Virus record (IMG/VR): IMGVR_UViG_3300021961_007031
Strand: one strand, 5' to 3'
DNA from: a virus
Length of the DNA: 64,000 nt
The translations under genes and the position numbers were made by a program. The notes under the pieces were generated by a model. It saw only the letters and a program-made list of their open reading frames with translations, searched no databases and was not told where the DNA came from. How positions within the stretch are numbered: position 1 is the first letter of the stretch; each line of letters opens with the position of its first letter. Of the stretch, positions 10,066-50,636 are shown piece after piece.

Positions 10066-10076
10066 GGAGCATAAAC

Positions 10077-10319: not shown

Positions 10320-10323
10320 GACA

Positions 10324-10935: not shown

Positions 10936-10937
10936 GC

Positions 10938-12272: not shown

Positions 12273-12276
12273 ACTA

Positions 12277-12879: not shown

Positions 12880-12930
12880 CATAACTTTAACAAAAGTGTA
12901 ACAGGAATGTAACATACTCGTGTTTAAATA
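12875..12930 (+). promoter_or_regulatory. Pho-box-like array upstream of pstS, followed by TAAATA
   Basis: AATAACA, TTTAACA, TGTAACA, TGTAACA at exact 11-bp spacing (12875, 12886, 12897, 12908); TAAATA at 12925-12930. Confidence 0.7.
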
Positions 12931-12959
12931 GTGGTATCATACACACAGGGAGACACAGT

Positions 12960-30733: not shown

Positions 30734-31639
30734 ATGCTATTTTTAAATTACGCTGAGTTTTATTTAACCAACGTATGTAATTTGTCATGTCCAGGCTGTA
30801 ACAGGTTTAACAGTTTTAATTTTAAAGGGCATCAACGTTGGTCAGATTTAAAAGACACTTATACTAAATGGGCTAAAGTTTTACACCTAGGCAATTTTGG
30901 GATTTTGGGCGGAGAACCATTACTAAATCCTAATTTTATGGATTGGTTAATTGGAACAACTGACTTATGGCCCAAATCAACATGTAGGTTAACTACAAAT
31001 GGTTTTAGACTTAATAAAGTCAAAGGCTTGTACGATGTATTAAAAAGTCGTCCTAAAATTCAAATGTCAGTTGGTATTCATAATAAAATGCACAAGCGGG
31101 AAATAATGAATATTTTAGAAGAATTCCTTGCTGGGCCGCTTAAAATAGAACACGATAATTCTAATAAATATCAGCAAAAGTTGTATATCACCGATTCTAA
31201 TGATGTAAAAGTTAGAGTAGAATATAATTGGTGGTTTCATCAGGGAGCAATCATTCCTAACGATCAAGGAAAGTTAACTTTGCATAACAGTGATCCAGAT
31301 AAAGCGCATAGTATTTGCCACAGTTCAGAATGTCATCATTTTGCATATGGCAAATTATACAAATGCGGCGCCAGTGCGCTGTTTTCAGAGTTTGACGAAC
31401 AGATAGGTTTAGAACTAGATTCTAAAGATAGAGAATTAATTAATAATGTAAATTCATTATCAGTGGATGACGATTTAGAAACACAAAAACTGTTTATAGA
31501 AAATATAAAAAACCCTATACCACAATGTAAATTTTGTCCTGAAGTTTATATTGGAGATCAAATTTTTGCCTTAAAGAAAAAGGATATATTGGCCCAGCAA
31601 CGAGAGAGTACAAATGAGATTTTCCGAGTTAACACATAA
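30734..31639 (+). CDS. radical SAM protein
   Basis: CNLSCPGC, GGEPLL, TTNG, C-terminal Cys. Confidence 0.88.
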   Translation: MLFLNYAEFYLTNVCNLSCPGCNRFNSFNFKGHQRWSDLKDTYTKWAKVLHLGNFGILGGEPLLNPNFMDWLIGTTDLWPKSTCRLTTNGFRLNKVKGLYDVLKSRPKIQMSVGIHNKMHKREIMNILEEFLAGPLKIEHDNSNKYQQKLYITDSNDVKVRVEYNWWFHQGAIIPNDQGKLTLHNSDPDKAHSICHSSECHHFAYGKLYKCGASALFSEFDEQIGLELDSKDRELINNVNSLSVDDDLETQKLFIENIKNPIPQCKFCPEVYIGDQIFALKKKDILAQQRESTNEIFRVNT

Positions 31640-33927: not shown

Positions 33928-36579
33928 ATGTACGTTGACGCTTATTTTGATAGAGAACATGACAGGATCAATGTTGTAGAACGTGTAAACGGCAGGAGAG
34001 AATATCGTGAATTTCCTGTCAACTACATCTTTTATTACAACGATCCACGTGGCAAGCATCAGACTATCTATGGCAACAGAGTAAGCAGATTTAGTACCAG
34101 AAACGGTAAAGAGTTCCAGAAGGAACTTAAAATACACGGCAATCATGGCCTTTGGGAAAGTGATATCAATCCAGTATTTCGTTGTTTAGCAGAGAACTAT
34201 CTGGGCGTTGATGCTCCTAAACTACAAACAGCGTTTTTTGATATTGAGGTTGACTTTGACCCAGAACGTGGCTACAGTTCGCCGGATGATCCGTTTAACG
34301 CAATTACAGCAATTACAGTGTACATGGACTGGCTAGGACAACTAGTCACACTTGCTATTCCTCCCAAGAGCATGAGTATGGAAACTGCAAAGGAAACTGT
34401 TGCAGAGTTTGATAACATGTTCTTGTTTGATAGAGAAGATAGGCTGCTAGAAGCATTCCTGGATCTCATAGAGGATGCGGATATCCTAAGTGGTTGGAAC
34501 AGTGAGGGTTATGATATTCCCTACACAGTAAATCGTATCACTAGAGTACTGAGCAAGGACGATACTAGGCGTTTTTGTTTATGGGGTCAACTGCCCAAGC
34601 AACGCACATTTGAGCGTTTTGGCAAAGAAGATAGTACATACGATATTATCGGCAGACAGCACTTGGATTACATGCAGTTGTATCGCAAGTACACCTATCA
34701 TGAAATGCACAGTTACAGTTTGGATGCCATTGGCGAGTATGAACTTAATGAGCGTAAGGTTGCATATGAGGGCACACTGGACCAACTATACAACCAGGAC
34801 TTTTACACATTTATTGACTATAACAGACAGGACACTATGCTCCTGTACAAACTGGATCAAAAGTTAAAGTTTATTGATCTAGCAAACGAACTTGCTCATG
34901 CAAACACAGTGCTACTACCTACTACAATGGGCGCGGTTGCTGTTACAGAACAAGCAATTATTAACCACGCTCATGAGCAAGGGCTTGTTGTGCCCAACAA
35001 GAAAAAGCCAGACGAAGAACATAACAAAGCAGCAGGTGCGTATGTTGCAAAGCCCAAAGTAGGACTACATGACTGGATAGGCAGTATTGACTTGAACAGT
35101 CTGTATCCTAGTGTTATTAGGGCACTAAACATGGCACCAGAAACCATTGTAGGACAACTGCGCCCTATCATAACTAACCAAGCCATACAAACAATCTTAT
35201 CCCAGAAGGGCACATTTAGTGATGCTTGGGACGGCGAGTTTGGTAGCAAAGAATACCAAGCAGTTATGAACATGGAGGTGGGCACTGAAATTACTATTGA
35301 CTGGGAAAGTGGTGACAGTGACACACTTAGCGCAGCAGATGTATGGCGTCTAGTTTTTGATAGTAACAACCCCTGGATACTAAGCGCAAACGGTACTATC
35401 CTAACCTATGAAAAGAAGGGCATTGTTCCTGGATTGCTTGAACGCTGGTACGCAGAGCGTAAAGAACTACAAGCAAAGATGCGCGGTGCTGAAGGTGAAG
35501 AACGAGCGTTCTGGGACAAGCGACAACTTGTTAAGAAGATTAACTTGAACAGTTTGTATGGTGCTATCCTTAATCCATACTGCCGCTTCTTTGACCATCG
35601 CATTGGACAGTCCACTACACTTACTGGCAGATGTATTGCCAAGCACATGAGTGCACAGGTAAACAAACTGCTAACTGACAAGTATGATCACTTGGGTGAT
35701 TGTGTTATATATGGTGACACAGATAGTGTGTACTTTAGTGCTTGGCCAGTTATTAAAGAGCAAGTAGACGCTGGTAAGATGAAGTGGGGAAAGGATGAAT
35801 GCATCGCACTCTATGACCAACTTGGTGAAGCAGTAAACGAAACCTTTGCTGGTTTTATGGAACGGGCATTCCATTGTCCAAGAAGCTATGGCGAGATTGT
35901 TGCAGCAGCAAGAGAAATTGTAGCACTTAAAGGTTTGTTTATTACAAAGAAGCGTTATGCTGCACTTGTAATTGATACTGAAGGTTACCGCAGTGATACA
36001 GATGGCAAGCCCGGTAAAGTAAAAGCAATGGGATTGGATCTCAAGCGCAGCGACACACCCAAATACATGCAGGACTTTTTAAGTGAACTGCTACTGGATG
36101 TGCTTACAGGTAAAGATAGCGAACATGTCGTAGAGCGTATTAAAGACTTCAAGTATCAGTTCAAGGACAAGCCAGGCTGGGAAAAGGGTACACCCAAGCG
36201 TGTAAACAACCTAACTATGTACACTGCACGAGAACGAGCAGAGGGCAAGGCTAATATGCCCGGGCATGTTAGAGCAGCAATGAACTGGAACTACTTACGG
36301 GCACTACACAATGATAACTACAGTCAACAAATTGTTGATGGAATGAAGACCATTGTATGCAAACTTAAAGACAATCCACTGGGCTACACAAGCGTGGGCT
36401 ATCCCACAGACGAAACCACACTTCCTAAATGGTTCAAGGAACTGCCCTTTGATGATGGCGCAATGGAAGATGCTATCGTGGACCAGAAGATCGATAACCT
36501 TCTCAGTGAACTAAACTGGAATCTTAAAGAAAAGACACAAACTAAAAATACTTTTGACAGTTTATTCTCATTTGAGTAA
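33928..36579 (+). CDS. family B DNA polymerase (gp43-like)
   Basis: FFDIEV exonuclease I, DLNSLYPS, KINLNSLYG, YGDTDS, KKRYA. Confidence 0.97.
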   Translation: MYVDAYFDREHDRINVVERVNGRREYREFPVNYIFYYNDPRGKHQTIYGNRVSRFSTRNGKEFQKELKIHGNHGLWESDINPVFRCLAENYLGVDAPKLQTAFFDIEVDFDPERGYSSPDDPFNAITAITVYMDWLGQLVTLAIPPKSMSMETAKETVAEFDNMFLFDREDRLLEAFLDLIEDADILSGWNSEGYDIPYTVNRITRVLSKDDTRRFCLWGQLPKQRTFERFGKEDSTYDIIGRQHLDYMQLYRKYTYHEMHSYSLDAIGEYELNERKVAYEGTLDQLYNQDFYTFIDYNRQDTMLLYKLDQKLKFIDLANELAHANTVLLPTTMGAVAVTEQAIINHAHEQGLVVPNKKKPDEEHNKAAGAYVAKPKVGLHDWIGSIDLNSLYPSVIRALNMAPETIVGQLRPIITNQAIQTILSQKGTFSDAWDGEFGSKEYQAVMNMEVGTEITIDWESGDSDTLSAADVWRLVFDSNNPWILSANGTILTYEKKGIVPGLLERWYAERKELQAKMRGAEGEERAFWDKRQLVKKINLNSLYGAILNPYCRFFDHRIGQSTTLTGRCIAKHMSAQVNKLLTDKYDHLGDCVIYGDTDSVYFSAWPVIKEQVDAGKMKWGKDECIALYDQLGEAVNETFAGFMERAFHCPRSYGEIVAAAREIVALKGLFITKKRYAALVIDTEGYRSDTDGKPGKVKAMGLDLKRSDTPKYMQDFLSELLLDVLTGKDSEHVVERIKDFKYQFKDKPGWEKGTPKRVNNLTMYTARERAEGKANMPGHVRAAMNWNYLRALHNDNYSQQIVDGMKTIVCKLKDNPLGYTSVGYPTDETTLPKWFKELPFDDGAMEDAIVDQKIDNLLSELNWNLKEKTQTKNTFDSLFSFE

Positions 36580-36600: not shown

Positions 36601-37530
36601 ATGAGCCGGCTTCTTAAAAATCATAGTTTACTAGACGAATATAAAAGAAGAATTGCGCTGTTGCCTGTTGATATTACCGGGCAATTGGAAATTATTGAAC
36701 AAACTATCAAGTCTCAGTTACCAAGGTGGAAAAATACTGATAAGCATAATGCTATACTTCAAAGAGTGCAAGAGTTAGCAACTGCTCAGAATAATTTAAA
36801 TTCTGCAATCCAAGATTTAACTCAAGAAATCCATAATCTTTTAGTTGGAAAAGAAAAAAGAATAATTCAAAGAGACTATCAAAGAGTAGAAAAGCAGGTT
36901 GTTGAAGATGAAGACTTCATAATACGAAATAGTTGGCTTACTAACGAAATTAAAGATAAGTTAATGGGTTATATACATAACCATAGTGCTATTTGGCAAC
37001 ATGGTAGTTTGGAAATCAATCCAGGCGATGGATATTTTAGCACTATAATGAATGCAGCAGATCCCCAATACTGTATAGTTGCTAATAAACAAGTAGAACA
37101 AGTAATAAAAAGTAAATTTAATGAGTTTTACAGCAATAGACGATTAAGATGCTATACCGATGTAGCACAGTTACCAGATAATGGTATAGGATTTTCTACA
37201 TGTATAAATTTGTATGAGTATTTGCCTGTGGACAATATAAAAGATATTAGTATGGCTACTTTTAATAAATTAAAGCCAGGTGGCAAATTTTTAATTACCT
37301 ATAACGACTGCGAGCAGCGTTACAGTTTAGAAATGCTTGGCAACGATGCAAGATGTTTGGCTACCAAAAGTTTAATAGAAGGTTTACACTATGGCATAGG
37401 ATATGACATATTAGAAGCAGGCAACACAAACGATGGTGTCTGGAGTTATATGTTATTACAAAAGCCAGGAACACTTACAAGCCAAAAAATGAATGCTCCT
37501 GCTATAGAATTTGTTGAAGAAAAAGTTTGA
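36601..37530 (+). CDS. coiled coil plus methyltransferase-like domain
   Basis: LEINPGDG, KLKPGG; TATAAATA at 36588-36595. Confidence 0.5.
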   Translation: MSRLLKNHSLLDEYKRRIALLPVDITGQLEIIEQTIKSQLPRWKNTDKHNAILQRVQELATAQNNLNSAIQDLTQEIHNLLVGKEKRIIQRDYQRVEKQVVEDEDFIIRNSWLTNEIKDKLMGYIHNHSAIWQHGSLEINPGDGYFSTIMNAADPQYCIVANKQVEQVIKSKFNEFYSNRRLRCYTDVAQLPDNGIGFSTCINLYEYLPVDNIKDISMATFNKLKPGGKFLITYNDCEQRYSLEMLGNDARCLATKSLIEGLHYGIGYDILEAGNTNDGVWSYMLLQKPGTLTSQKMNAPAIEFVEEKV

Positions 37531-37583: not shown

Positions 37584-38315
37584 ATGAAAGATTATCTATT
37601 AGATATTGTTAAGCATACACATAGTTTGGGTATTATTGATCTAGTAAAGATTACCGGAGACGATTCAAAGACAAGTATTGAAGGACTTGCAGAAGACCGT
37701 AGTGTAATTTTACAGGGCGAGTTCCATACGCCAGTTGCTGATTTTATTGGCACATTTGGTATGCCCAACCTAGACAAACTGGGCATTATACTACGCATTC
37801 CTGAATATGCAGATGATGCAAAGATTACTATCAATACGCAAGAGCGTAACGGCGAAACAGTACCAGTAGGTGTTCATTTTGAGAACAAGGCTGGTGACTT
37901 CCAGAACACATACAGATTTATGAGCAGCGACATTGTAAACGATAAGCTCAAAAGTGTTACAATGAAACCGGTAAATTGGGGTGTAAATTTCCAACCCAGC
38001 ATCGCAGGCATCCAACGCCTTAAGATGATGATTAGTGCTAACAGTGAGCAAAGCGTGTTCACTGCAAGAACAACTGGCAAAGATTTAACATTTGCATTTG
38101 GCGATGCTAGCACCCATGCTGGTGAGTTTGTGTTCCAACCTGATGTTGGTGGCAGCCTTAGCAAAGCCTGGAGTTGGCCAGTGGATAGCATTAGCAAGAT
38201 TCTAAGCCTAAGTGGCGACATCAGCTACAAGATAAGCGATGATGGCGTTAGCCAGATTACAGTTGATAGTGGTCTTGGTGTTTACAACTACCTACTTCCT
38301 GCTCAGACCAAGTAA
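37584..38315 (+). CDS. putative sliding clamp (gp45/PCNA-like)
   Basis: 243 aa; PCNA-like alpha/beta pattern ending YNYLLPA; near the polymerase. Confidence 0.6.
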   Translation: MKDYLLDIVKHTHSLGIIDLVKITGDDSKTSIEGLAEDRSVILQGEFHTPVADFIGTFGMPNLDKLGIILRIPEYADDAKITINTQERNGETVPVGVHFENKAGDFQNTYRFMSSDIVNDKLKSVTMKPVNWGVNFQPSIAGIQRLKMMISANSEQSVFTARTTGKDLTFAFGDASTHAGEFVFQPDVGGSLSKAWSWPVDSISKILSLSGDISYKISDDGVSQITVDSGLGVYNYLLPAQTK

Positions 38316-38941
38316 TGCATTTTGATGTAAAACTACTACCGGTGTTAATTAATCCAGAACTAAATTGTATCTGGATTAATATACCCAAAAATGCTAGTAG
38401 TTTTATGCAAAAGATGTTACAGGATAATGGTTGGCGAGAACCAGATTCTAGTATTACTTCAAGTCTACTAAACAGTAATATCCGTAAATTTGCAATTTTA
38501 CGCAATCCTGTAAAGAGATGGATCAGTGGATTTGCTGAGTGTTTTATGGATATGCCAGAGATGGTAAACATGTTAGATAATCCCGCATTCATAGAGGTTG
38601 TCCAGCGTTCACCAGTGTTTGATAATCATACTGAATTGCAGTGTACATTCATTCCTGATAGTAGGAATCTAGAGTACATTTTTATGGATAGTGATAGGCA
38701 ACCTCAAGTCTTTTTTTCTACAGTAGACACATGGTTTAAAAATAATGGATACCAAAGTGATTGTCATTTCTGGCGAGATCCTGTCAATCCCAGTAGTAAT
38801 GATCCGGTTAAAAAAGAAATAAACCGTATACTACAAAACATGCATCAAAACAAACATTCATTATTTGATAGTTTGGATACCTTTTACCAATCTGATTATA
38901 ACTTAATGAATGCTAGTAAGAGAATAAATTACGAATTATAG
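38315..38941 (+). CDS. sulfotransferase family 2-like protein
   Basis: IPKNASS (5'-PSB) and LRNPVKRWISG (3'-PB). Confidence 0.7.
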   Translation: MHFDVKLLPVLINPELNCIWINIPKNASSFMQKMLQDNGWREPDSSITSSLLNSNIRKFAILRNPVKRWISGFAECFMDMPEMVNMLDNPAFIEVVQRSPVFDNHTELQCTFIPDSRNLEYIFMDSDRQPQVFFSTVDTWFKNNGYQSDCHFWRDPVNPSSNDPVKKEINRILQNMHQNKHSLFDSLDTFYQSDYNLMNASKRINYEL

Positions 38942-38952
38942 AAAGTGTAACA

Positions 38953-39141
38953 ATGGAAATTAAAGATCGTATTGCTATACTAGAAGAACAACATAGTAGA
39001 TTAGCAACAGCCTGCGAAGAGTTAGAAAAATCAAGACAATCTGATCGCAGAGAAGAAACAAAATTAAAGTTGTTAGATTTAAAGAAAAAGAAACTATCAG
39101 TCAAGGATGAGATAGCAGTTCTAAGAGGCAGTAATGGCTGA
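38953..39141 (+). CDS. small coiled-coil protein (YdcH/DUF465-like)
   Basis: LEEQH..LKKKKLSVKDEI. Confidence 0.55.
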   Translation: MEIKDRIAILEEQHSRLATACEELEKSRQSDRREETKLKLLDLKKKKLSVKDEIAVLRGSNG

Positions 39142-39769
39142 AAGGTATTTTAGAGTTTACTTGTGGGGCTATGGTGGCGAACAGGTAGTAGGCTCAATTA
39201 CTAAAGAGCAGTATGAATTTTGGAAGGATATTGATGAAGAATATCTAATCTCTCATGCTTTTTGGGATCCTTGGGATGCTGGCGATGATAATCCTGTATA
39301 TGATGACACTGATCCAAGGTGGCTAGGTCAGTGGTATGAACTAGATGACATCTTACATGAAAATGGTGTTAATGTTTCTACAGCACAGGTAACAATTGAT
39401 GAATTGGAAGACGATGACTATGGTAGCAGAATCATTGACACTGTTATAGCCAACATGGATTGGCAGCGGTTTGTTGATGAGTACTATATACAACTTCCAG
39501 AGCCCGACAATCAAGAAGACGCAATCTACGACGCTGAGTATACTTTTCACGGCACAAGCGTAGAAAAGGGCTGTTTTGGTGAATATTATATAAAAACTGA
39601 TGGTGAAGATCTAAATATTAGTAAACTAGGTTTTTCCTTGACAATGACGCCAAATGAGGATATAATATTACAATTAACTGATTATGCAGGACAAGAGGTT
39701 GACAATGTTGGTGGTGATTCCAACGGAAAAGGTTATTATGCTAATGTTTACTCAAGGGACGAAGATTAA
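39134..39769 (+). CDS. acidic hypothetical protein
   Basis: GYGGE motif; very D/E-rich. Confidence 0.55.
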   Translation: MAERYFRVYLWGYGGEQVVGSITKEQYEFWKDIDEEYLISHAFWDPWDAGDDNPVYDDTDPRWLGQWYELDDILHENGVNVSTAQVTIDELEDDDYGSRIIDTVIANMDWQRFVDEYYIQLPEPDNQEDAIYDAEYTFHGTSVEKGCFGEYYIKTDGEDLNISKLGFSLTMTPNEDIILQLTDYAGQEVDNVGGDSNGKGYYANVYSRDED

Positions 39770-40221
39770 TGGCTGAAAGAGAAACCAACGACCAATATAT
39801 GTTGCGTATGTTGCGTGAAGAGGGTTTAAAGCAACGACTACGCACATCTAAAAAAATGATTTGGGTTACATTTCAAAAGGAAGGTATACACAAGTATCCT
39901 GCTGCACTGGAAGATCCTAAACTAGCAACCGGTGACGAATATGATGTAAGTTTCCTGGGTTATCCACACCGTCATATATTCCACTTCAAAGTTGCTATTG
40001 AAGTATTCCATGATGATAGAGATATTGAATTTATTCAGTTTAAAAGGTGGTTGACAAAATTATATGATCAGCGTACACTAGAACTTGATTATAAGTCATG
40101 CGAAATGATTAGTGATGACTTATATTTGCAGATACAGGAACGTTATCCTGGCCGTAATGTTGAAATTGAAGTTAGTGAAGACGGCGAAAACGGTAGTATA
40201 ACTTTTTATAACAAGGACTAA
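39769..40221 (+). CDS. dpdL: QueD-paralog T-fold protein, DpdL-like (putative CDG decarboxylase)
   Basis: EGIH, LGYPHRHIF (LxxxHRHxF), RDIEF, SCEM, VSEDGENG. Confidence 0.65.
   Translation: MAERETNDQYMLRMLREEGLKQRLRTSKKMIWVTFQKEGIHKYPAALEDPKLATGDEYDVSFLGYPHRHIFHFKVAIEVFHDDRDIEFIQFKRWLTKLYDQRTLELDYKSCEMISDDLYLQIQERYPGRNVEIEVSEDGENGSITFYNKD
40051..40079 (+). promoter_or_regulatory. internal sigma70-like promoter
   Basis: TTGACA-N17-TACACT. Confidence 0.45.
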
Positions 40222-40228
40222 AATTAAA

Positions 40229-40441
40229 ATGAAACCACAAGTTTCAAAAGTATTTGACGATTTAGACGATTTCCTACGTTTTTGTAAGACGTTTGGACAC
40301 CCTTATAACGAGGCTGACCTATACAACAACGATAGCGAAATATATCAGCAGTACCGTATGCTTAAAGAAGGCAAACGCATAAGTAATAATTGGATGCGTG
40401 ATGCAAAGATTCATGGACACAGGATCTTTGGTAACCGTTAA
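40229..40441 (+). CDS. hypothetical protein
   Basis: AAGGA SD. Confidence 0.55.
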   Translation: MKPQVSKVFDDLDDFLRFCKTFGHPYNEADLYNNDSEIYQQYRMLKEGKRISNNWMRDAKIHGHRIFGNR

Positions 40442-40746
40442 TGTCGGATCCAAGTCTTAAGTTTCCCAATGCAATTACAGTAAACGCCTCCAACTACACC
40501 GACAGGAAAAATCATCTTCCTGGCGAAGGTGGTGCTCTTAATGCTGGCTATACGCCCGTAGATGCATTATGTATGGTTAGCAATTTACTTGGCAGTCATG
40601 GTCTACGATATAATGTAGATTGGTGGTGGGATGGATTTGGTTACGGTGATTATACCATTAATGGTCCATCTTACACACTAAATTTAATGTTTGCTAAAGA
40701 AGAGCATCGTTTACTACTTGATTTGGGACTTAAGAATGCAGGTTAG
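40441..40746 (+). CDS. hypothetical protein
   Basis: Coupled ORF. Confidence 0.5.
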   Translation: MSDPSLKFPNAITVNASNYTDRKNHLPGEGGALNAGYTPVDALCMVSNLLGSHGLRYNVDWWWDGFGYGDYTINGPSYTLNLMFAKEEHRLLLDLGLKNAG

Positions 40747-41959
40747 TTTTATAGGGTTGGGCAAACTTGGTTTGCCATGTGCAGAGGAAATAGCAAAAAA
40801 AGGACACACTGTTCTGGGTTACGATGTAGCACCGGTAACAAGCGAACTTGTAGACATCAAAGACACATTAGCGGAAGCAATAAAGTTTTCTAAGATTGTT
40901 TTTGTTGCTGTTCCTACTCCACACGAAGCCAATTATGATGGCCGTGTACCAACGGCACATTTAGAACCCAAAGACTTCAACTACGACATTGTAAAACAAG
41001 TATTGCGTGAGTGTAATGAACTCATGTACTCTGCACAAATGATTGTGTTAATTTCTACAGTGCTTCCTGGCACAGTGCGTAGAGAATTCGTTCCATTAAT
41101 TACAAATACACGTTTTGCGTACAACCCATATCTGATCGCAATGGGCAGCGTTGCCTGGGATTTTTTAAATCCTGAGATGGTTATGATTGGCACAGAGGGT
41201 GGCGATACTACATGGGATGCACAACTACTAGTAGACTTCTACAAAACAGTTATTGATAATGATCCACGCTTTGTAGTTGGTACTTGGGACGAATGCGAAT
41301 GTATCAAAGTGTTTTACAACACATTTATCAGTACCAAAATTGGACTGGCAAATATGATACAGGATGTTGCAGTAAGGCAGGGCAATATCAATGTTGATGT
41401 GGTTACCCAGGCACTAGCAGAGTCAACTAAACGAATCATGGGCCCGCAGTATATGACTGCAGGAATGGGTGATGGTGGTGCTTGCCATCCACGGGACAAT
41501 ATTGCCCTGCGCTACATGGCACAAGAACTAGATCTAGGTTATGATTTGTTTGATGCTATAATGAATGCAAGAGAAAAGCAAGCACACAACCTTGCAAAAC
41601 ATTTAGTGGATTTAGCAAACGAAAATGAGATGGAAATCTATATACACGGCAAAGCATACAAGCCAGGTGTAGAATACATTGACGGAAGTTATAGTTTATT
41701 AATTGGACATTATGTACAAGAAATGGGCAAAAGTGTAACATACATTGATCCATTGACTGGTGATAATAACGAACCCAAGCAACCTTGTGTAGTATTGTTA
41801 GCCCATAGTGCAAGTACAACATACAAATATATGCACCAGGAAAGCAATACAGATAAATTATATTGTGTGATACCCATGGGAAGCATAGTCGTAGACCCAT
41901 GGCGCAAGTTCCAAAGTCACGCAAGCAAGGTAATACATTATGGCAATACGCGAGTCTAA
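40736..41959 (+). CDS. UDP-glucose/GDP-mannose dehydrogenase family
   Basis: GLGKLG, VAVPTP, STVLPGT, GGACHPRD, GKAYKP. Confidence 0.9.
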   Translation: MQVSFIGLGKLGLPCAEEIAKKGHTVLGYDVAPVTSELVDIKDTLAEAIKFSKIVFVAVPTPHEANYDGRVPTAHLEPKDFNYDIVKQVLRECNELMYSAQMIVLISTVLPGTVRREFVPLITNTRFAYNPYLIAMGSVAWDFLNPEMVMIGTEGGDTTWDAQLLVDFYKTVIDNDPRFVVGTWDECECIKVFYNTFISTKIGLANMIQDVAVRQGNINVDVVTQALAESTKRIMGPQYMTAGMGDGGACHPRDNIALRYMAQELDLGYDLFDAIMNAREKQAHNLAKHLVDLANENEMEIYIHGKAYKPGVEYIDGSYSLLIGHYVQEMGKSVTYIDPLTGDNNEPKQPCVVLLAHSASTTYKYMHQESNTDKLYCVIPMGSIVVDPWRKFQSHASKVIHYGNTRV

Positions 41960-42479
41960 GTGGCACATAGGCTATATAGATCCCTTTTGGGATAATGCAC
42001 ATCATATTTTAGATTATGAGTCTGAAACGTTTAACAATTCAGACGACATTATAAGTTGGATGGAAAAAGGGTATACTGCACCGTATGTAGGTGATTTATG
42101 CGACATGCGTAAACTACAAACATGGTATGCTACAGACTTAACACAAATTTTTACAAACATCTATGGCATTCAGGATGTTGGTACAAGTTTCTACAGAATG
42201 AGAACAGGCGTAGTTCTACCCCCACACCGCGATACCTACAAAAAATATCGTGAATTGTTTAATGTAGAATTACATGAAATCCAACGTATCGTAGTTTTCC
42301 TTGAAGATTGGCAATCCGGACATTACTTTGAAATAGAAGGCAAGCCGATTGTAAGTTGGAAACGAGGCGATTACATATGGTGGCGTGGTGACGCAGAACA
42401 TATGGCCGCTAATATTGGCGATCGTGACAGATACACTTTACAAATAACAGGACACGATGGATTACAACGTTTTAAATGA
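41940..42479 (+). CDS. 2OG-Fe(II) oxygenase-like protein
   Basis: PPHRD (HxD), EHMAAN, RYTLQI. Confidence 0.65.
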   Translation: MAIRESKWHIGYIDPFWDNAHHILDYESETFNNSDDIISWMEKGYTAPYVGDLCDMRKLQTWYATDLTQIFTNIYGIQDVGTSFYRMRTGVVLPPHRDTYKKYRELFNVELHEIQRIVVFLEDWQSGHYFEIEGKPIVSWKRGDYIWWRGDAEHMAANIGDRDRYTLQITGHDGLQRFK

Positions 42480-43059
42480 TTTCGAACAGGTGCTTAGTGA
42501 TTATACTGGAGCACCCTATGTTGTATTAACAGACAGTTGCACTCATGCTATTGAACTTTGTTTAAGACTTAAAAAGTGGCAGGGTCCAGTCATACTCCCT
42601 AAACGCACTTACATAAGTGTTCCTATGACCATGCACAAGTTAGGGTTGCCTATTTACTGGGACGATGAACTTGAATGGCAGCATGAATATAGAATTGCTC
42701 CTACAAACATCTGGGATAGTGCTAGAGCATTTGATAAAAACATGTATGTTCGGGGTCGTATGCAATGTTTGAGTTTTGGCTTTGATAAGCGTCTTAATAT
42801 CGGACATGGCGGTGCAATACTATTAGACAGCAGAGGCGATCACCATATCCTAAAACGCATGGCTTACGATGGAAGAGATTTAAGTATTAGTCCCTGGGAA
42901 AAACAAGGCGGATGGTACTTAGGGTTTCATTATAATATGCGATTAGAAGACGCCGCAAAGGGTATTGAAATGATGCAGAAGCCCGAGCATTTACCCAGTT
43001 TAGCCAGCCAAATTAAAACATATCCAGATTGCAGTAAAATTTCAGTTAATATTGACTAA
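42457..43059 (+). CDS. short DegT/DnrJ-family PLP aminotransferase
   Basis: DSCTHAIEL, WDSA, LSFGFDK, GGAIL, GFHYNM. Confidence 0.75.
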   Translation: MDYNVLNDFEQVLSDYTGAPYVVLTDSCTHAIELCLRLKKWQGPVILPKRTYISVPMTMHKLGLPIYWDDELEWQHEYRIAPTNIWDSARAFDKNMYVRGRMQCLSFGFDKRLNIGHGGAILLDSRGDHHILKRMAYDGRDLSISPWEKQGGWYLGFHYNMRLEDAAKGIEMMQKPEHLPSLASQIKTYPDCSKISVNID

Positions 43060-43080
43060 TCGTCTAAATAATCTTATCAT
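43052..43080 (+). promoter_or_regulatory. composite promoter of dpdA
   Basis: TTGACT-N17-TATCAT with CGTCTAAATAA (43061-43071) in the spacer. Confidence 0.7.
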
Positions 43081-43102
43081 TAGATATTAAGAAGGTAAAG
43101 AT

Positions 43103-44566
43103 ATGGCAACCAGAGTTAATCTAAGCGAAAAGAATTATGACTACGCAGTGTTTACTCCTGCACTTAGCGGCTTTTATCAGAGTTATGTAAGCAAACAACA
43201 ACAAGACCCCAATCATGTAGAACAGTCTCGTATACCTGCAAAGTTTGAAAATGGTATAGAAGGACTTAACTTTCTCAATCCAGAGCAGGGCTACTTTACA
43301 TACAATCATGTACTCTACAGTGCTGGGCATGCTGAACTAGACATGGCTAAAGCAGTGGATCGTGAAAGCATGATCCATAAGCGTGACAGAGACAATACAG
43401 TGCTTATTGGTGACAGTGGCGGATTCCAGATCAGCAAAGGCGTTTGGCAAGGCAACTGGCTAGAGCCTGAAGGGCAATGTGCTGCTACAGACAAACAGCG
43501 TGGTACAGTTTTAAACTGGTTGGAAAATACAGCAGACTACAGTATGGTACTGGATATTCCTACAAATGGTTTAAACTTTGTTGACGAAAAAACTGGTAAG
43601 CCACGCTGTGGTTTGAATGACTACGCAGAGTTCCGCGACGCTACCAAGGCAAACAATAACTACTTCTTTAAACATAGACAGGGCAAAACAAAGTTCCTAA
43701 ATGTTCTGCAGGGCAGCACATACGAGCAAGCAGATGATTGGTTTGACAATGTATGCTTGCCTATTGTAAATGAAACAAGTGGCTGGGCATTTGGTGGTGT
43801 ACAAAAAACAAACCTTAACCACAGTTTAAGAAGGTTGCTATATCTCAAAGAACTTGGATTGCTACAAAAAGCAGAATGGATTCACTTCCTAGGTACAGGT
43901 AGACTTGATCAGGGTGTGATGTATACTGCAATGCAACGGGCTATTAGGAAGTCTATAAATCCAGACCTTACAATAAGCATGGATTGTGCAAGTCCATTTA
44001 TTGCTACAGCAAACGGCCAAGTGTACACTGACAATACATTTAATAACAAGCGTATTGGTTACAACATGGTACACATGGTAGACGAAAAGGATCCCGCACA
44101 CAAAGAAGCACCCTGGCCCTGGGACGACAGTCCTATTGGTGCTAGACTTACCTGGCGTGATGTTAACTGGTATGATCCAGGCGACTTAAACAAGATTGGT
44201 AAGGAAGGCAAAACCAGTTGGGATAGTTTTGCATACTGTTTAATGATGGGACATAACATCTACAAGCATATTGACTCAGTGCAAATGGCTAACCGTCTAA
44301 TGGCACGACCCATTGGTATGAATGAATGGATACCTGATCAATATCTACAGTTCCAGGAGCTCTGTGTAGACTTGTTTGCTAGAGATTACAACAAGAGCAT
44401 GGCTGCTATTGATGCAGAACTTGACAAGCATGAAGGTTTGATTAGTAAACTAAGCCGTATTAAAAATCTTAAAAACACAAACGCATTTGACAGTTTGTTT
44501 AGTTTTGATGTTCCCACAACCAACACTGATATAGACAGTAGCCAGGAAGAGGATGATGCTAGATGA
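43103..44566 (+). CDS. dpdA: TGT-fold DNA 7-deazaguanine transglycosylase (DpdA/DpdA2-like)
   Basis: GDSGGFQ, MVLDIP, NVLQG, GWAFGG, HFLG, SMDCASP; folE, queD and queE in the window. Confidence 0.78.
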   Translation: MATRVNLSEKNYDYAVFTPALSGFYQSYVSKQQQDPNHVEQSRIPAKFENGIEGLNFLNPEQGYFTYNHVLYSAGHAELDMAKAVDRESMIHKRDRDNTVLIGDSGGFQISKGVWQGNWLEPEGQCAATDKQRGTVLNWLENTADYSMVLDIPTNGLNFVDEKTGKPRCGLNDYAEFRDATKANNNYFFKHRQGKTKFLNVLQGSTYEQADDWFDNVCLPIVNETSGWAFGGVQKTNLNHSLRRLLYLKELGLLQKAEWIHFLGTGRLDQGVMYTAMQRAIRKSINPDLTISMDCASPFIATANGQVYTDNTFNNKRIGYNMVHMVDEKDPAHKEAPWPWDDSPIGARLTWRDVNWYDPGDLNKIGKEGKTSWDSFAYCLMMGHNIYKHIDSVQMANRLMARPIGMNEWIPDQYLQFQELCVDLFARDYNKSMAAIDAELDKHEGLISKLSRIKNLKNTNAFDSLFSFDVPTTNTDIDSSQEEDDAR

Positions 44567-45633
44567 GCACCATTTATATTATATGTCTGGAACCAATTGA
44601 CCAGAGATATACTAAACAGTGGTATACAAACATTCCCAATATACTGGAACAGCGTATTCAGGAACAGGGCTTAGATTATCAGGTAGTTACTATTGAAGGT
44701 GAGACTGTGCCTGACAACACAACAGCAGGTGCGTTCCTGGACTTTGGTGCTACAAATGTTTATAAAGCAAGCCAGACTGTAACTGTTAGCAAGATGTTCA
44801 GTGCAGGAGAAATTAAGCCTGGCGACAAGTTTTTGGTTACTGATGCCTGGAACTTTATTATTACACCTATCAAATACATGAGCGATTTGCTGGACATTCC
44901 AGTAGAAATACACAGTATCTGGCATGCTGGCGCATATGATCCTAGCGACATACTGGGCTACAAAATGAACAAGCCCTGGCCCTGGGAAGCAGAGCGCAGT
45001 TGGTATCACAGTAGCGATTACAACTATTACGCCAGTGAGAACCATCGCAGGATGTTCCTCAACAACTTAAACATTCCAGAAGAGTATCATTATAAAGCAG
45101 TGCGTAGTGGACAGCCACACGAACTGATAATTGCAGATCTTGTTAAACATCAAAGCACGCCTAAACAAAATCGTGTTATGTGGCCGCACAGATACAATGC
45201 TGACAAGCAGCCAGAGATAGCAGAAGACTTGAGCACTGATTTTGACATGGTAATCACACAAAAAATGAACTTGAGTAAACCTGATTACTATGCTACAATG
45301 GGTACAAGTAAACTTATTTTTAGTTGTGCATTGCATGAAAATCTTGGCATCAGTGTCATGGAAGCGGTGCTGACTGGAGCAATACCTGTTGTGCCGGATC
45401 GTTGCAGTTACAGTGAAATGTATTTGGATGAATTTAAATATCCCAGTGAATGGACTATCAATCAGGAGAGTTACGAAAAGAACAAACATAGAGTAGTTGA
45501 GTTTATACAAGACAAACTGGACAACTATTCTAACTATCATAACCTAATTCGTGAGCAACAGAGTATTCTTGTCCAAGATTATTTGAGCTGTGACGTTATG
45601 ATGGACAGACTATTAAACACGGAAGTTCAGTGA
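44563..45633 (+). CDS. GT-B glycosyltransferase coupled to dpdA
   Basis: WHAG, WPHR..DKQPE, ENLGISVMEA..GAIPVVPDR; ATGA overlap. Confidence 0.8.
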   Translation: MSTIYIICLEPIDQRYTKQWYTNIPNILEQRIQEQGLDYQVVTIEGETVPDNTTAGAFLDFGATNVYKASQTVTVSKMFSAGEIKPGDKFLVTDAWNFIITPIKYMSDLLDIPVEIHSIWHAGAYDPSDILGYKMNKPWPWEAERSWYHSSDYNYYASENHRRMFLNNLNIPEEYHYKAVRSGQPHELIIADLVKHQSTPKQNRVMWPHRYNADKQPEIAEDLSTDFDMVITQKMNLSKPDYYATMGTSKLIFSCALHENLGISVMEAVLTGAIPVVPDRCSYSEMYLDEFKYPSEWTINQESYEKNKHRVVEFIQDKLDNYSNYHNLIREQQSILVQDYLSCDVMMDRLLNTEVQ

Positions 45634-46397
45634 TGAAATTAGCTGTCTGTGGTGATTCTTGGGCTAGTATAGATAATAATGACCCATCATCTAGTTTTTC
45701 AGAGATACTGTGTAAAGATCATGGCTGGGATTTATATAACTTAGCTCGCCCAGGAGCAAGTAATTTTGCAATTTGTTTGCAAATAGATCAGGCAGTTAAA
45801 CTTGATGCAGATTTTGTAATAATAAGCACAACTACTCCTGGACGTATTGAAGTTCCTTTAAAAGGAAAAACATATGTAAAGGAACTAATAGGCAAGAATA
45901 TACATTATCCAGACACTAGGCAACCTGCAATATCAGACATAGGCAAAGAAATGATGAAAGATCCTACTATTGCTGTAGATGTACTTGGTAATTTTGAGAC
46001 TATATGGAATGAGGACTATAAAAAAGTTTTGCCAGAGACTTTCCTAGATACTTTAAAATCTTATGTTGTGGATATGTTTGACCAGAATATAAAATTACAA
46101 TATGATACATGGATTATGAGCGATGCATGTCGTAGGTTATTGGATAAGAAAGTTCCCTTTTTAATAATAATTGATTACTTATATAATGGCTACAGTGTAG
46201 GTGATCCTTATCATGATTTTGAAGTAGATTTAAATTGGATACCGGCGAAATATTTAATACACTATGACGATTTCGCATGGCATAGGGAAACTGTTGTTGA
46301 CAATAAACACTATTACCATTATAGTTCGTCTAGTGCCCAAAAAATAGCAGATTACATATTTGCAAGAATAAACAAAGTAAAGGAACTTAGTGCATGA
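45633..46397 (+). CDS. SGNH-like protein
   Basis: VCGDSW, GASN, C-terminal YH. Confidence 0.55.
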   Translation: MKLAVCGDSWASIDNNDPSSSFSEILCKDHGWDLYNLARPGASNFAICLQIDQAVKLDADFVIISTTTPGRIEVPLKGKTYVKELIGKNIHYPDTRQPAISDIGKEMMKDPTIAVDVLGNFETIWNEDYKKVLPETFLDTLKSYVVDMFDQNIKLQYDTWIMSDACRRLLDKKVPFLIIIDYLYNGYSVGDPYHDFEVDLNWIPAKYLIHYDDFAWHRETVVDNKHYYHYSSSSAQKIADYIFARINKVKELSA

Positions 46398-47083
46398 GAA
46401 ATACTTCCGAAAAAATTATAGAACGAATAAAACAAAAAAATGGACGCTACTGGGCTGGCGACAACATAAGCCAATATCTAGAACCAGGTGACAAAGAAGC
46501 ACTTATTGACGAACTTACTGGTAAGTTTGAAAGTGTTATAGATAGTTTGGTTATCGATCGTTATACAGATCCAAATAGTCGTGATACTGGCAGACGTTTG
46601 GCCAAGATGTACATTAAAGAGATAATGAGCGGCCGGTATAATCCTAAACCCAAAGCAACTGCTTTTCCTAATCATACTGATGAACCATATGATGGCATGC
46701 TGGTTGTGCGTAGTGAACTTAAAAGCATGTGCAGCCATCATCATCAACCAGTTGCAGGTGTCGCTTATATAGGTATTATTGCCGCAGATAAACTTATTGG
46801 TTTGAGCAAGTATACACGCATAGCGCAATGGTGTGCAAGGCGTGGTACACTACAAGAAGAACTTGCCATGGATATTGCAAGAGAAATTATGAATGCCACT
46901 GGCAGCAAGAACGTCGGCGTATATATACAAGCGACGCATGGCTGTTGTGAGAACCGTGGTATCATGGCACACAGTAGTCTAACACAAACTACAGTTTTGC
47001 GTGGCAGTTTCCATAATGATCCTGCTTGCAAGAAAGAGTTTATGGACAATATTAAATTGCAACAGGAATTTGCACCAAGATGA
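46394..47083 (+). CDS. folE: GTP cyclohydrolase I
   Basis: SMCSHH, GLSKY.R, LQEEL, HGCCENRG. Confidence 0.95.
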   Translation: MRNTSEKIIERIKQKNGRYWAGDNISQYLEPGDKEALIDELTGKFESVIDSLVIDRYTDPNSRDTGRRLAKMYIKEIMSGRYNPKPKATAFPNHTDEPYDGMLVVRSELKSMCSHHHQPVAGVAYIGIIAADKLIGLSKYTRIAQWCARRGTLQEELAMDIAREIMNATGSKNVGVYIQATHGCCENRGIMAHSSLTQTTVLRGSFHNDPACKKEFMDNIKLQQEFAPR

Positions 47084-47997
47084 AATTACTATTAACTGGC
47101 AGCAGTGGGTTTATAGGTCAGGCCATAACGCCTAGACTTGAAAAAGAATACGAATTACATCATTTGCAAAGTGATTTATTAAATCATGCTGATGTAAAAG
47201 CAGAAGTTGCAAATGTAAATCCAGACCTTATTGTACATTTGGCTGCTAGGACCGAAGTAGAAAAGAGTTTTTACGAGCAAATAAGTTTTAGTGAAGTCAA
47301 TTATATTGGCACACTAAACCTTATAGAAAGTGCTAAAACACTAAAAAATCTTAAAAACTTCGTATTTGCTAGTACAATGGAAGTTTACGGATGGCAGCCT
47401 ATTAGTGATGAAATCGAACACACTGGAACATATAAAACTAGAGTAGCATTTGACGAGAATACTATACCTAACCCAAACGCTCCTTATGCAGTAGCAAAGT
47501 ATGGATGTGAAAAGTATTTAGAGTACGCACATCGTTGTTTAAATTTGCCATTTACTGCTATAAGGCAAACTAATGCATATGGCAGACACGACAACGATTT
47601 CTTTGTTACAGAAGCAATTATTAGTCGCATGTTAAAAAATCCACACGAAATTGACATGGGTTACGCTAAACCTTGGCGTAATTTTATCTATGTTGACGAT
47701 CTTATAGAAGCATGGATGACAGTCATTACAAATCCAGAAAAAGTTAACACAGGTAAAATTTTTACTATTGGTCCAGATAACGCACTTAGTATAGAAGACT
47801 ATGTAAATATAATTGGAAAAAAACTTAATTGGCATGGTCAAATAAACTGGAATAAGCGTCCTACCAGAGATGGAGAGATTTATTGGCTAAACAGTAATCA
47901 TGATCTAATTACAAAAGTGTTAGGTTGGCAACCTAAAGTGTCAATAGACGAGGGATTGGATAAAACTATAGAAATATGGAAAATCAAACTAAGTTAA
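47080..47997 (+). CDS. NAD-dependent nucleotide-sugar epimerase/dehydratase
   Basis: TGSSGFIG, HLAA, YAVAK, RNFIYVDD. Confidence 0.9.
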   Translation: MKLLLTGSSGFIGQAITPRLEKEYELHHLQSDLLNHADVKAEVANVNPDLIVHLAARTEVEKSFYEQISFSEVNYIGTLNLIESAKTLKNLKNFVFASTMEVYGWQPISDEIEHTGTYKTRVAFDENTIPNPNAPYAVAKYGCEKYLEYAHRCLNLPFTAIRQTNAYGRHDNDFFVTEAIISRMLKNPHEIDMGYAKPWRNFIYVDDLIEAWMTVITNPEKVNTGKIFTIGPDNALSIEDYVNIIGKKLNWHGQINWNKRPTRDGEIYWLNSNHDLITKVLGWQPKVSIDEGLDKTIEIWKIKLS

Positions 47998-49781
47998 ATG
48001 TTTATCTTTTCCAACCTCAATATGCAGTTGAAAGAAGAAAAGAAAACACTTATTGGTTGCCATACAGTGCAGGTTGTTTATGGACTTATGCTAACACGTT
48101 TCCTGAAGTACAGGAAAGGTACCAGTTAGCAGAGCTTGGTTTCAAGCGAGAAGATCCTCGTAACATTATTGAACGTATGAAAAAACAGCCGCCTGCTGTT
48201 TGCGGGTTTAGCTGTTATGTATGGAACGAAAAGTATTGTTTAAGCCTTGCCCAATTAGTAAAGCAAAACTTTCCAGATGTAAAAATAGTTTTTGGCGGCG
48301 CTCAAGCAAGCAATAGATTACTTGATTATCCATTTATAGACAGTGTTATCATTGCAGAAGGTGAAGAAAGTTTTGTTGACTTTTTAACTGCTGAAACTCC
48401 TAAACAGACATACAACAGACAGAGACTTACAAATTTAGAAATTCCCAGTCCCTATCTAACAGGTATATTCGATAAACTTATAGCAGAAAATCCTAACGCA
48501 CTTTGGAGTATGACATTTGAAACTAATAGGGGGTGTCCATACTCTTGTACATTTTGCGACTGGGGCGGAGTTACATACAGCAAGGTTAGACGATTAGAGT
48601 TAGACCGGATTACTAAAGATTTAGAGTGGGCAATAGGCAAGCCTATAAGTTACATTATCTGTGCAGATGCTAACTTTGGAATATTTAAAGAACGAGATTT
48701 AGAAATTGCACGTATACTAAGAAGAGTAGCTGATAGCAGTGGAGTAGAGGCTATAAATCTACAGTATGCTAAAAACAGCACAGAAATAGTTTTTCAGATA
48801 GCACAAATTATAGGAGAATATAGCAAAGGCGTTACAGTAAGTGTTCAAAGCATGCATGATGTTACCTTGGAAGCAATAAAAAGGAAAAACATGGATGTAA
48901 ACAAAATTGGAAATCTAATGGAACTCAGCAAGCAATACAATGTGGGCACCTACACTGAAGTAATACTTGGTTTGCCTGAGGAAACATTGAATAGTTGGTG
49001 TGAAGGTTTATGCAAATTACTAGAACTTGGCCAACATAACAGCATAGACATGTGGTTTGCCCAGTTACTAGAACGTAGCGAAATGGCTTCTCCTACTAGT
49101 ATAGAAAAATATAAAATTTCCCGAATTTCCAGTTCAGACTATTTTGCACTCTATAATAGCAATGACTATAAAGATATACAAGAGGAAATAGAACTTGTCA
49201 ATGGCACCAGTACTATGTCTCTAGAAGATATTGTGACTGGATACATGTACGGTTGGCTAATTATACAGTGGCACATAAGTGGCTACAGTCAACAAGTTGC
49301 AAAGACTGTAAGATATCAAAATGTTTCCTATAAAAAATATTACGATACATTGTTTAACATGGTACAGCAACATAAGATTTTTGGCAACCACTTCAAAGAA
49401 CTCAAAAGCCTTGTAACAACATATCTTAAACAAGGCAAGTTAGACATAGACGAAACTAAAAGTCATGGCCATAATATGCATTCTTTTAGTTATGAGTTTC
49501 TGTATAATAATAAACAAGCTGCCTACGACTTAGCAATAGAATGTGGAGAGCATTTTATTAATTTAACAGAATCTGATAAATTTACACAAAAACATTTTTT
49601 GTTTGACAAAGATACTAAGTATCCATTATATTGTAAAGACATTGTAATTAACCCACAACTACAAGACACCACAGATTTTGACTTTTATGCGCTTAGAAGA
49701 AAAAATCTTTTAAAAAATAATATTACCAAAAAGGAGATAACCAATGCCCATGCCAGAACGCATTACAGTACCAGCAGGTAG
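47976..49781 (+). CDS. B12-binding-domain radical SAM protein
   Basis: GFSCYVWN, FGG, GEGE-like AEGE, RGCPYSCTFC, DANFG. Confidence 0.85.
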   Translation: MENQTKLNVYLFQPQYAVERRKENTYWLPYSAGCLWTYANTFPEVQERYQLAELGFKREDPRNIIERMKKQPPAVCGFSCYVWNEKYCLSLAQLVKQNFPDVKIVFGGAQASNRLLDYPFIDSVIIAEGEESFVDFLTAETPKQTYNRQRLTNLEIPSPYLTGIFDKLIAENPNALWSMTFETNRGCPYSCTFCDWGGVTYSKVRRLELDRITKDLEWAIGKPISYIICADANFGIFKERDLEIARILRRVADSSGVEAINLQYAKNSTEIVFQIAQIIGEYSKGVTVSVQSMHDVTLEAIKRKNMDVNKIGNLMELSKQYNVGTYTEVILGLPEETLNSWCEGLCKLLELGQHNSIDMWFAQLLERSEMASPTSIEKYKISRISSSDYFALYNSNDYKDIQEEIELVNGTSTMSLEDIVTGYMYGWLIIQWHISGYSQQVAKTVRYQNVSYKKYYDTLFNMVQQHKIFGNHFKELKSLVTTYLKQGKLDIDETKSHGHNMHSFSYEFLYNNKQAAYDLAIECGEHFINLTESDKFTQKHFLFDKDTKYPLYCKDIVINPQLQDTTDFDFYALRRKNLLKNNITKKEITNAHARTHYSTSR

Positions 49782-49932
49782 AGACCCAAGTCGTAATCAT
49801 TTTTATGCTAGCCTAGTAAAAAGCATTGTGCGTTTAGGCGCATGTGCTGCACTGTTTACAGGCAATTTAGGTACAGCAGCAATCATGTTTGCAACTGCTG
49901 AAGTTATTGGCATTGCAGAAGAATTGGTATGA
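49744..49932 (+). CDS. small membrane protein
   Basis: AAGGAG SD; hydrophobic. Confidence 0.5.
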   Translation: MPMPERITVPAGRDPSRNHFYASLVKSIVRLGACAALFTGNLGTAAIMFATAEVIGIAEELV

Positions 49933-50636
49933 TTTTCCTTTTTGATGTAGACAATACAATAACCCCATATAGGGAACATATGACTCCTGAAATGGCTGAA
50001 ACACTGCTACAGTTACCCAACTTTAGTTTTGTTACAGGTAGTGATACACAAAAGACTATAGAGCAAGTAGGTTTGGATATCTTTAATCAAGCAGACTATA
50101 GTTTTAACTGTATAGCAAATGATGTATACAAAAAAGGCAAACCTTTTTATCGCAATAATTGGAAACCAAGTCGCCAATTCCATGCATTCCTAAATCAACT
50201 AGTAGACCTGAGTCCATACCCACACAACTATGAAAAAAATATAGAAGTTAGAACAGGTATGGTAAATTTTAGTACTGTTGGCCGCGGAGCAGTAGGACAA
50301 CAACGCAAAGACTACTATGAATGGGATTGTGAACATCGCGAAAGAGAGCAGCTATGCCAATTAGTAGAAAGACAATATCCTGATCTTACCGCTGTTATAG
50401 GTGGCGAGACAGGAATAGACATTTATCCCAAGGGCGCAGACAAGTCTCAATGCCTAAAACATTTTGCTGGGATGCCCGTACATTTCTTTGGTGATGCATG
50501 CCAGCCTGGCGGCAATGATTATTGTATAGCGCATGCTTTGAGTGGTAGAAGTGATTGTATTGTAAGTCATGTCAAGGATTGGACAGAAACATGGGAAATA
50601 CTCCAAAAATATACGAATCCCCAGACGGCGGCCTAA
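49929..50636 (+). CDS. HAD-IIB phosphomannomutase-like protein
   Basis: FDVDNT, VTGSD, RTGMVNFS, FFGD..GGND. Confidence 0.82.
   Translation: MIFLFDVDNTITPYREHMTPEMAETLLQLPNFSFVTGSDTQKTIEQVGLDIFNQADYSFNCIANDVYKKGKPFYRNNWKPSRQFHAFLNQLVDLSPYPHNYEKNIEVRTGMVNFSTVGRGAVGQQRKDYYEWDCEHREREQLCQLVERQYPDLTAVIGGETGIDIYPKGADKSQCLKHFAGMPVHFFGDACQPGGNDYCIAHALSGRSDCIVSHVKDWTETWEILQKYTNPQTAA

Follow-up and report, generated by a model that had tools for sequence, protein, structure and literature searches.

Docking on the sliding clamp through a short hydrophobic peptide is an established property of several proteins of phages T4 and RB69. An 11-mer from the RB69 polymerase has been crystallised on its clamp (PMC2988020), clamp binding by tails of the T4 gp43 and gp55 type is established (PMC2988020, PMC6212786), and T4 DNA ligase binds the T4 clamp, gp45, via an internal LDFLF loop with a dissociation constant of ~11 µM (PMC6212786). 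Among phage DNA modifiers, T4 alpha-glucosyltransferase (alpha-GT) is a gp45 binder (Sommer et al. 2004), and the pull-down has since been repeated (PMC13216743). Modification of phage DNA with 7-deazaguanines is described as a post-replicative base exchange by free DpdA; the extent of replacement ranges from 0.02% to 100% of G, and what sets this extent is an open question (Hutinet et al.). In bacteria, DpdA requires DpdB, which is a ParB-like ATPase and encircles DNA in a model (PMC10164549). The present analysis concerns a stretch of DNA of 64,000 nucleotides from a large uncultured phage (IMG/VR record IMGVR_UViG_3300021961_007031; this whole stretch is called the window), in which a DpdA-like enzyme with a predicted tRNA-guanine transglycosylase (TGT) fold carries in its C-terminal tail the same seven residues, FDSLFSF, that are found at the end of the family B DNA polymerase of the same virus. 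Our analysis suggests that this enzyme is tethered to the phage's own sliding clamp through the polymerase-like peptide, a reading to which we assign a probability of about 0.65. A search of the literature, combining DpdA or deazaguanine with clamp, PIP-box or replisome, found no paper on a clamp-docking peptide in a DpdA or TGT enzyme. The docking device and the enzyme superfamily are each known and their combination is undescribed. A preliminary description of this locus had stated that nothing of this kind is known for Dpd systems, and the search agrees with it; for clamp-bound phage DNA modifiers in general, T4 alpha-GT is a precedent.

Identification of the shared peptide

The polymerase ends in KNTFDSLFSFE (in a longer stretch, TQTKNTFDSLFSFE), where FDSLFSF occupies residues 876-882 of 883 and is followed only by glutamic acid and the stop codon. 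The C-terminal end of the TGT-like open reading frame (ORF) reads NLKNTNAFDSLFSFDVPTTNTDIDSSQEEDDAR; here FDSLFSF occupies residues 462-468 of 487 in the context N-A-F-D-S-L-F-S-F-D, and 19 mostly acidic residues trail it. The coordinates of both copies are listed in Table 1. Comparison of the codons (TTT GAC AGT TTA TTC TCA TTT in the polymerase and TTT GAC AGT TTG TTT AGT TTT in the TGT-like ORF) revealed three differences among seven, all of them synonymous (TTA/TTG, TTC/TTT and TCA/AGT), and the upstream K-N-T common to both proteins is likewise encoded by different codons. The identity of the two peptides and the difference in three codons, as put forward in the preliminary description, were both confirmed at the same positions.

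Analysis of the window in all six frames for the strict pattern F-D-x-L-F-x-F, a scan that the preliminary description had proposed, found two ORFs only, those of the polymerase and the TGT-like enzyme. The number of second copies expected by chance is 2.8e-5, calculated from the amino acid composition of 21,225 residues of plus-strand ORFs. FDSLFSF is the sole 7-mer common to non-paralogous proteins within the window, and no terminal copy of the peptide occurs there beyond these two proteins. A sulfotransferase-like ORF (38315-38941, with HSLFDSLDTFY) was considered as a third carrier and rejected because the stretch lies inside a domain and is not kept in orthologues. A search of the PDB with the polymerase tail alone returned a bZIP match only, which was judged spurious.

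Conservation of the peptide in related viral contigs and cultured phages

The TGT-like family is large, with more than 7000 protein clusters at E < 0.001 and about 600 viral contigs in IMG/VR. A total of 91 related viral contigs were fetched, and both tails could be read in 81 loci, representing 69 distinct pairs; the contigs with both tails showed 40-97% identity, and three cultured phages were added to them. The motif proved to be present in the orthologous DpdA-like tails of the 81 contigs and of the three cultured phages. Among the best 120 proteins the enzyme tail varies throughout apart from one island, F-[NGDT]-[SN]-L-F-[ED], and in a 47-member alignment the phenylalanine after leucine (F466) is conserved in at least 90% of sequences within this otherwise variable tail. 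The 69 distinct polymerase tails gave the consensus N-T-F-[NGD]-[KSN]-L-F-[DS]-F-E at the very C-terminus, and the enzymes gave N-x-F-[NGD]-[SN]-L-F-[ED]-[FVI]-[ED] followed by 18-64 more residues. The two consensus sequences agree beyond the L-F core, at the flanking N-T and at the trailing aromatic-acidic positions. The pairing is still found in lineages as divergent as 27-45% identity. Same-genome pairs shared on average 3.13 identical variable positions against 2.75 for shuffled pairs, a small excess that was reached by 3 of 5000 shuffles.

Analysis of the cultured phages revealed the same pairing in different forms. In phage PA5oct the polymerase ends in HFDSLFGW and the TGT-like enzyme has SFNSLFDVD, and a scan of the whole PA5oct genome for F-[DN]-[ST]-L-F found terminal copies in the polymerase and the enzyme only. 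In Sinorhizobium phage Phosso the polymerase ends in TTFNDLFTF and the TGT-like protein in KIVEGLF. In Vibrio phage 2.275.O both proteins carry a changed form, DLF[DG]W, the polymerase ending in NNTDLFDW and the TGT-like protein in NNNDLFGW; of the single observations on covariation, this parallel change is the strongest.

Vibrio phage GR7B encodes a related protein with a TGT domain but lacks this type of polymerase. As a negative control, the characterised DpdA2 of the T4-type phage nt-1 has no polymerase-like tail, and the nt-1 polymerase ends in TLESFFG; the tail is therefore a feature of the present family and not of DpdA in general. The nt-1 enzyme modifies only ~0.1% of G (Hutinet et al.).

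In 83 of 92 loci the polymerase, clamp and enzyme genes share a strand, and 72 of these 83 have them in the order given, with a median spacing of 45 bp between polymerase and clamp and of 334 bp between clamp and enzyme. The window departs from this pattern in that an insertion of sugar genes, ~4.8 kb long, separates clamp and enzyme. It also has an ORF of 309 amino acids (36601-37530) between polymerase and clamp, where most relatives have ~45 bp; this ORF has no family match, its N-terminal part is coiled-coil-like and its C-terminal part looks methyltransferase-like by eye only.

In a looser motif scan of all loci, extra matches other than ORFs in contigs L031 and L022 fell mostly on minus-strand ORFs, which are probably non-coding. 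Contig L031 has on its plus strand, just downstream of the TGT-like gene, an ORF of 182 amino acids (12275-12820) with a weak T5orf172 match and with NEFNSLFDVEE 17 residues from its end; NEFNSLF is also the 7-mer in the TGT-like tail of the same contig. This ORF may add a third carrier of the peptide, or it may be a mobile endonuclease that has picked up a copy of the tail.

Characterisation of the polymerase, the clamp and the TGT-like enzyme

The polymerase matches PHROG 262 with E 1e-194, and its closest solved relatives in the PDB are RB69 gp43 (E 6e-65) and T4 gp43 (E 4e-56). The ORF that the preliminary description had taken for the clamp does have a PCNA/gp45-type fold: its model has a predicted local distance difference test score (pLDDT) of 90 with two repeated domains, and it matches PCNA over the full length (Foldseek E 4e-11, template modelling score ~0.7; VIA Z 18.6, root-mean-square deviation 2.9 A over 223 residues). 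Homologues of this ORF are labelled PCNA or clamp in two phage records. The clamp ORF has no Pfam match, and searching the PDB by sequence with a clamp profile found nothing. Within the window no clamp loader was identified, the sole AAA+ match being a Lon-like protease.

The model of the TGT-like enzyme (pLDDT 87) matches tRNA-guanine transglycosylases with Foldseek E 7e-9, which indicates the TGT (beta/alpha)8-barrel fold, and with VIA Z 20.4 over 305 aligned residues. A profile of 47 family members aligned, with an hhalign probability of 97.6%, to a Vibrio phage GR7B protein annotated as 'TGT domain-containing'; the alignment pairs GDSGGFQ, LDIPT, QG/HG, FDCASP/SSDAST and an HN motif, and GDSGGFQ, LDIP, QG, FDCASP and HN are invariant in the 47 diverse members. 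DSGGFQ and the FDC-type aspartate map to what we take to be catalytic residues of Z. mobilis TGT. The CxCxxC...H zinc site was not found: the CNCPVC of GR7B aligns to PW-DSPIG and the HN motif alone is kept, so the zinc site is lost in the enzyme. The enzyme has no match in Pfam, PHROGs or NCBIfam and none in the PDB by phmmer or profile search, and PF01702 matches neither the enzyme nor its homologues in PA5oct, 2.275.O and Phosso. Fold comparison and the single profile-profile alignment gave the only links to known proteins. The nearest named viral predicted structures in BFVD are a Motura 'tRNA guanine transglycosylase' and the nt-1 protein named DpdA2 by Hutinet et al. (E 2.6e-10), with a weaker match to a phiST protein, the sole result that bears on membership of DpdA3; the profile of the enzyme family and a related protein match nothing in the nt-1 genome.

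Fold and context support assignment of the ORF as a divergent, zinc-less member of the TGT/DpdA superfamily, and on the same evidence its most likely activity is the replacement of guanine by a 7-deazaguanine derivative in phage DNA. The DpdA-like identity given in the preliminary description is thus upheld as regards a TGT fold encoded near folE; guanine exchange in DNA, by a relative that has lost the zinc site and has no Pfam match, is the part of it that we infer from this evidence.

In the predicted model the last helix of the enzyme ends at residue 451 and the peptide starts about 10 residues beyond it. The tail from residue 454 to the end, which includes the peptide, has pLDDT < 50. Most relatives have a second acidic element, (E/D)(I/V)DLxNPxDDxLRxLE, after the polymerase-like peptide; here it is shortened to TDIDSSQEEDDAR.

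Comparison with known clamp-docking peptides and DNA modifiers

The T4/RB69 precedent was cited correctly in the preliminary description. Tails read from the T4 record show gp43 ending in EEKASLDFLFG and gp55 ending in SPSLDFLYEAND (SLDFLYEAND). The peptide described here resembles those of the gp45 clients in being short and hydrophobic-acidic, in following the scheme Φ-D-x-L-F, in being common to a polymerase and a non-polymerase client and in lying outside the folded domain, on a terminus or loop that is flexible (for the enzyme, by prediction). The setting is also alike, in that the polymerase is a gp43 homologue and a clamp of the PCNA/gp45 fold is encoded by the same genome. As in gp55, acidic residues follow the motif in the enzyme, and as in T4 ligase the motif is not at the very end. 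The differences are that F-D-S-L-F-S-F is found here in place of L-D-F-L-F or L-D-F-L-Y, and that a TGT-fold base-exchange enzyme is not among the known gp45 clients, for which binding is established while for the present enzyme it would follow from the likeness of the peptides.

T4 alpha-GT is comparable as a phage DNA modifier that is linked to the sliding clamp and is proposed to act with replication; it differs in that it decorates hydroxymethylcytosine already incorporated, whereas the enzyme described here would replace the base itself. In the T4 record the alpha-GT gene (12625-13827, minus strand) encodes A-Y-E-F-L-Y about 20 residues from the C-terminus, which by sequence only resembles the gp55 clamp motif L-D-F-L-Y-E.

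Phage DpdA1-4 and the bacterial DpdA/DpdB system share with the present enzyme a TGT-derived fold, DSGGFQ-type motifs and deazaguanine neighbour genes. The enzyme differs in that it is not found by PF01702, has lost the zinc motif and is longer, with a polymerase-like tail that is absent from nt-1 DpdA2. In contrast to the bacterial system, no DpdB was seen here; its role may fall to the replication clamp.

Among eukaryotes, DNMT1 and UNG2 bind PCNA via PIP boxes. They are alike as modifying or base-excising enzymes that are brought to newly replicated DNA by a clamp peptide, but they differ in being eukaryotic, in their chemistry and in their motif class (QxxΦxxFF).

Proposed mechanism and alternative explanations

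The comparative tests that were run all support the preliminary reading. The most economical and most likely explanation of these data adds the enzyme to the clients of the phage clamp. A clamp as the partner is likely because the polymerase is a gp43 homologue whose tail has the same position and chemistry as the T4 and RB69 tails, which bind the clamp. By analogy with T4 gp43, gp55, gp33 and DNA ligase, which dock LDFLF/Y-type peptides on gp45, the peptide in the enzyme tail would insert into a hydrophobic pocket of the PCNA-like, presumably trimeric clamp, and the clamp would hold the enzyme on DNA as it tracks along the newly replicated duplex. The enzyme could share a ring with the polymerase, each on its own subunit, or it could use clamps that stay on the DNA; base exchange would thereby become processive and replication-coupled. 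The data show the shared peptide, its conservation in the two proteins, their folds and the gene order, from which clamp binding, DNA as the substrate and the timing are inferred. Action right behind the fork, as proposed in the preliminary description, is only one among the timings that would fit, because clamps that remain on DNA, which serve late transcription in T4, would serve this purpose too.

A farther-reaching reading, which we hold to be less likely than not, concerns this very large family of jumbo phages of marine, soil and Pseudomonas origin as a whole: the clamp would be the DNA-tracking factor of a zinc-less DpdA-type transglycosylase and would take the place of DpdB. Guanine replacement, perhaps together with glycosylation by the coupled glycosyltransferase, would then be co-replicative and processive, and the tether would set the completeness of modification.

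Several observations count against a clamp-tethered guanine exchanger. The peptide differs from the LDFLF of T4, and in the enzyme it is internal and not terminal, as is also the case for the motif of T4 ligase. The first aromatic residue is degenerate in some orthologues (I-S-N-S-L-F, G-N-K-D-L-F). The covariation between tails, a check that the preliminary description had called for, was detected, but its signal is small and left uncorrected for relatedness (phylogeny). The chemistry of the enzyme is not certain, given its missing zinc site and the lack of a match to any curated TGT model, and FolE is the sole clear pathway gene in the window, the QueE-like match being weak and queC and queD not confirmed. 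Furthermore, expression level and not clamp contact mainly sets the alpha/beta ratio in T4 (2026 paper, PMC13216743); as the clamp contact of alpha-GT is not the main determinant of modification level, a tether need not matter much in vivo.

Docking of the peptide on some other common partner (a clamp loader, a single-strand binding protein, a helicase or primase, or a scaffold of the replication compartment) is unlikely. In its favour, T4 gp43 tails are reported to use more than one site on gp45 (PMC2988020), and the second conserved acidic element shows that the enzyme tail has more than one function. Against this, the tail of a gp43 homologue, alike in position and chemistry, binds the clamp in T4 and RB69, and the clamp gene is almost always adjacent to the genes of both carriers. 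Quite unlikely, in our estimate, is a TGT-fold protein that does not exchange guanine in DNA and is instead a tRNA transglycosylase, a base-removing DNA glycosylase or a non-catalytic binder of DNA or bases; the tail would then have a purpose other than DNA hypermodification. The motifs aligned to the TGT active-site region are invariant in all 47 diverse members, the fold match reaches Z 20 and the nearest annotated viral structures are of TGT/DpdA type (nt-1 DpdA2, Motura). Relatives lie within full deazaguanine operons, the DNA of PA5oct contains modified G, and the polymerase-type tail and the place beside the clamp argue for a DNA substrate. These points stand opposite the lost zinc cysteines, the absence of a sequence match in Pfam, NCBIfam and the PDB, and FolE as the only clear pathway gene in the window.

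The match between the two tails is only seven residues long, and it might be supposed to be a functionless accident, either a chance match or the trace of a recent event that recombined or copied the 3' end of the polymerase gene. We consider this very improbable in view of the chance expectation, the three differing codons, the persistence of the pairing to 27-45% identity and in three cultured phages, and the parallel change in 2.275.O.

Tethering of the enzyme to the clamp would, through the docking tail, give a concrete mechanism for coupling base exchange to replication and, if true, would extend the range of phage sliding-clamp clients by a new class of enzyme. The polymerase-tail peptide could also be used as a sequence signature for other replisome-tethered DNA modifiers in uncultured phages. 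The cultured family members PA5oct (on Pseudomonas aeruginosa) and 2.275.O (on Vibrio) make the idea directly testable.

Neighbouring genes and other features

Table 1. Coordinates of the features of the polymerase, clamp and enzyme region in the window.
Feature	Coordinates	Strand	Basis or remark
Radical SAM protein, weakly QueE-like, uncertain	30734..31639	+	Pfam Radical_SAM, Fer4_12; PHROG 2076 E 6e-4
Family B replicative DNA polymerase, 883 amino acids	33928..36579	+	Pfam DNA_pol_B and exonuclease domains; PHROG 262
Polymerase C-terminal peptide KNTFDSLFSFE, candidate clamp-docking tail	36544..36576	+	core 36553-36573
PCNA/gp45-type two-domain sliding clamp, 243 amino acids	37584..38315	+	predicted fold
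TGT-fold, DpdA-like enzyme, 487 amino acids	43103..44566	+	predicted structure, profile-profile match, motifs
Predicted disordered C-terminal tail of the enzyme, residues 454-487	44462..44563	+	pLDDT below 50
Polymerase-like peptide KNTNAFDSLFSFD in the enzyme tail	44471..44509	+	core FDSLFSF at 44486-44506
Acidic end of the tail with TDIDSSQEEDDAR, reduced copy of the second conserved element	44510..44563	+	relatives
GT-B-like glycosyltransferase	44563..45633	+	weak Glycos_transf_1 match
GTP cyclohydrolase I (FolE), first 7-deazaguanine pathway enzyme	46394..47083	+	Pfam E 8e-40; NCBIfam FolE

The folE gene lies 1.8 kb downstream of the TGT-like gene, and the start codon of the glycosyltransferase gene overlaps the stop codon of the TGT-like gene (ATGA), which couples the two translationally; the same glycosyltransferase gene comes after the TGT-like gene in PA5oct. 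Around the TGT-like gene and folE there is a run of mostly overlapping plus-strand genes (38315-50636), which encode sulfotransferase-like, UDP-sugar dehydrogenase, 2-oxoglutarate (2OG)-oxygenase-like, short DegT-like and GT-B glycosyltransferase proteins as well as an NAD epimerase/dehydratase, a B12-radical SAM protein and a phosphomannomutase. This gene run suggests a sugar-decorated deazaguanine.

Among the cultured relatives, PA5oct carries QueE, and its DNA resists cleavage at G-containing restriction sites, which is restriction evidence for modified G (PMC12191111); for this phage, Iyer et al. 2021 go no further than listing a deazaguanine system. In Vibrio phage 2.275.O the region 5917-12576 contains the TGT-like gene, a gene of 370 amino acids and the genes for QueF, a YhhQ-type transporter, QueC, a Gat-type amidohydrolase and FolE, which together constitute a complete operon of the preQ1 type, placed immediately after polymerase and clamp.

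Elsewhere in the window, two tandem paralogous genes (3622-4476 and 4470-5312; 284 and 280 amino acids) share many identical 7-mers. Two other proteins are of kinds not usual in a phage region for replication and modification, namely a double-AAA+ protein of 755 amino acids (16172-18439; PHROG 4871, 'ATP-dependent protease') and a protein of 1193 amino acids with a subtilase domain (51624-55205).

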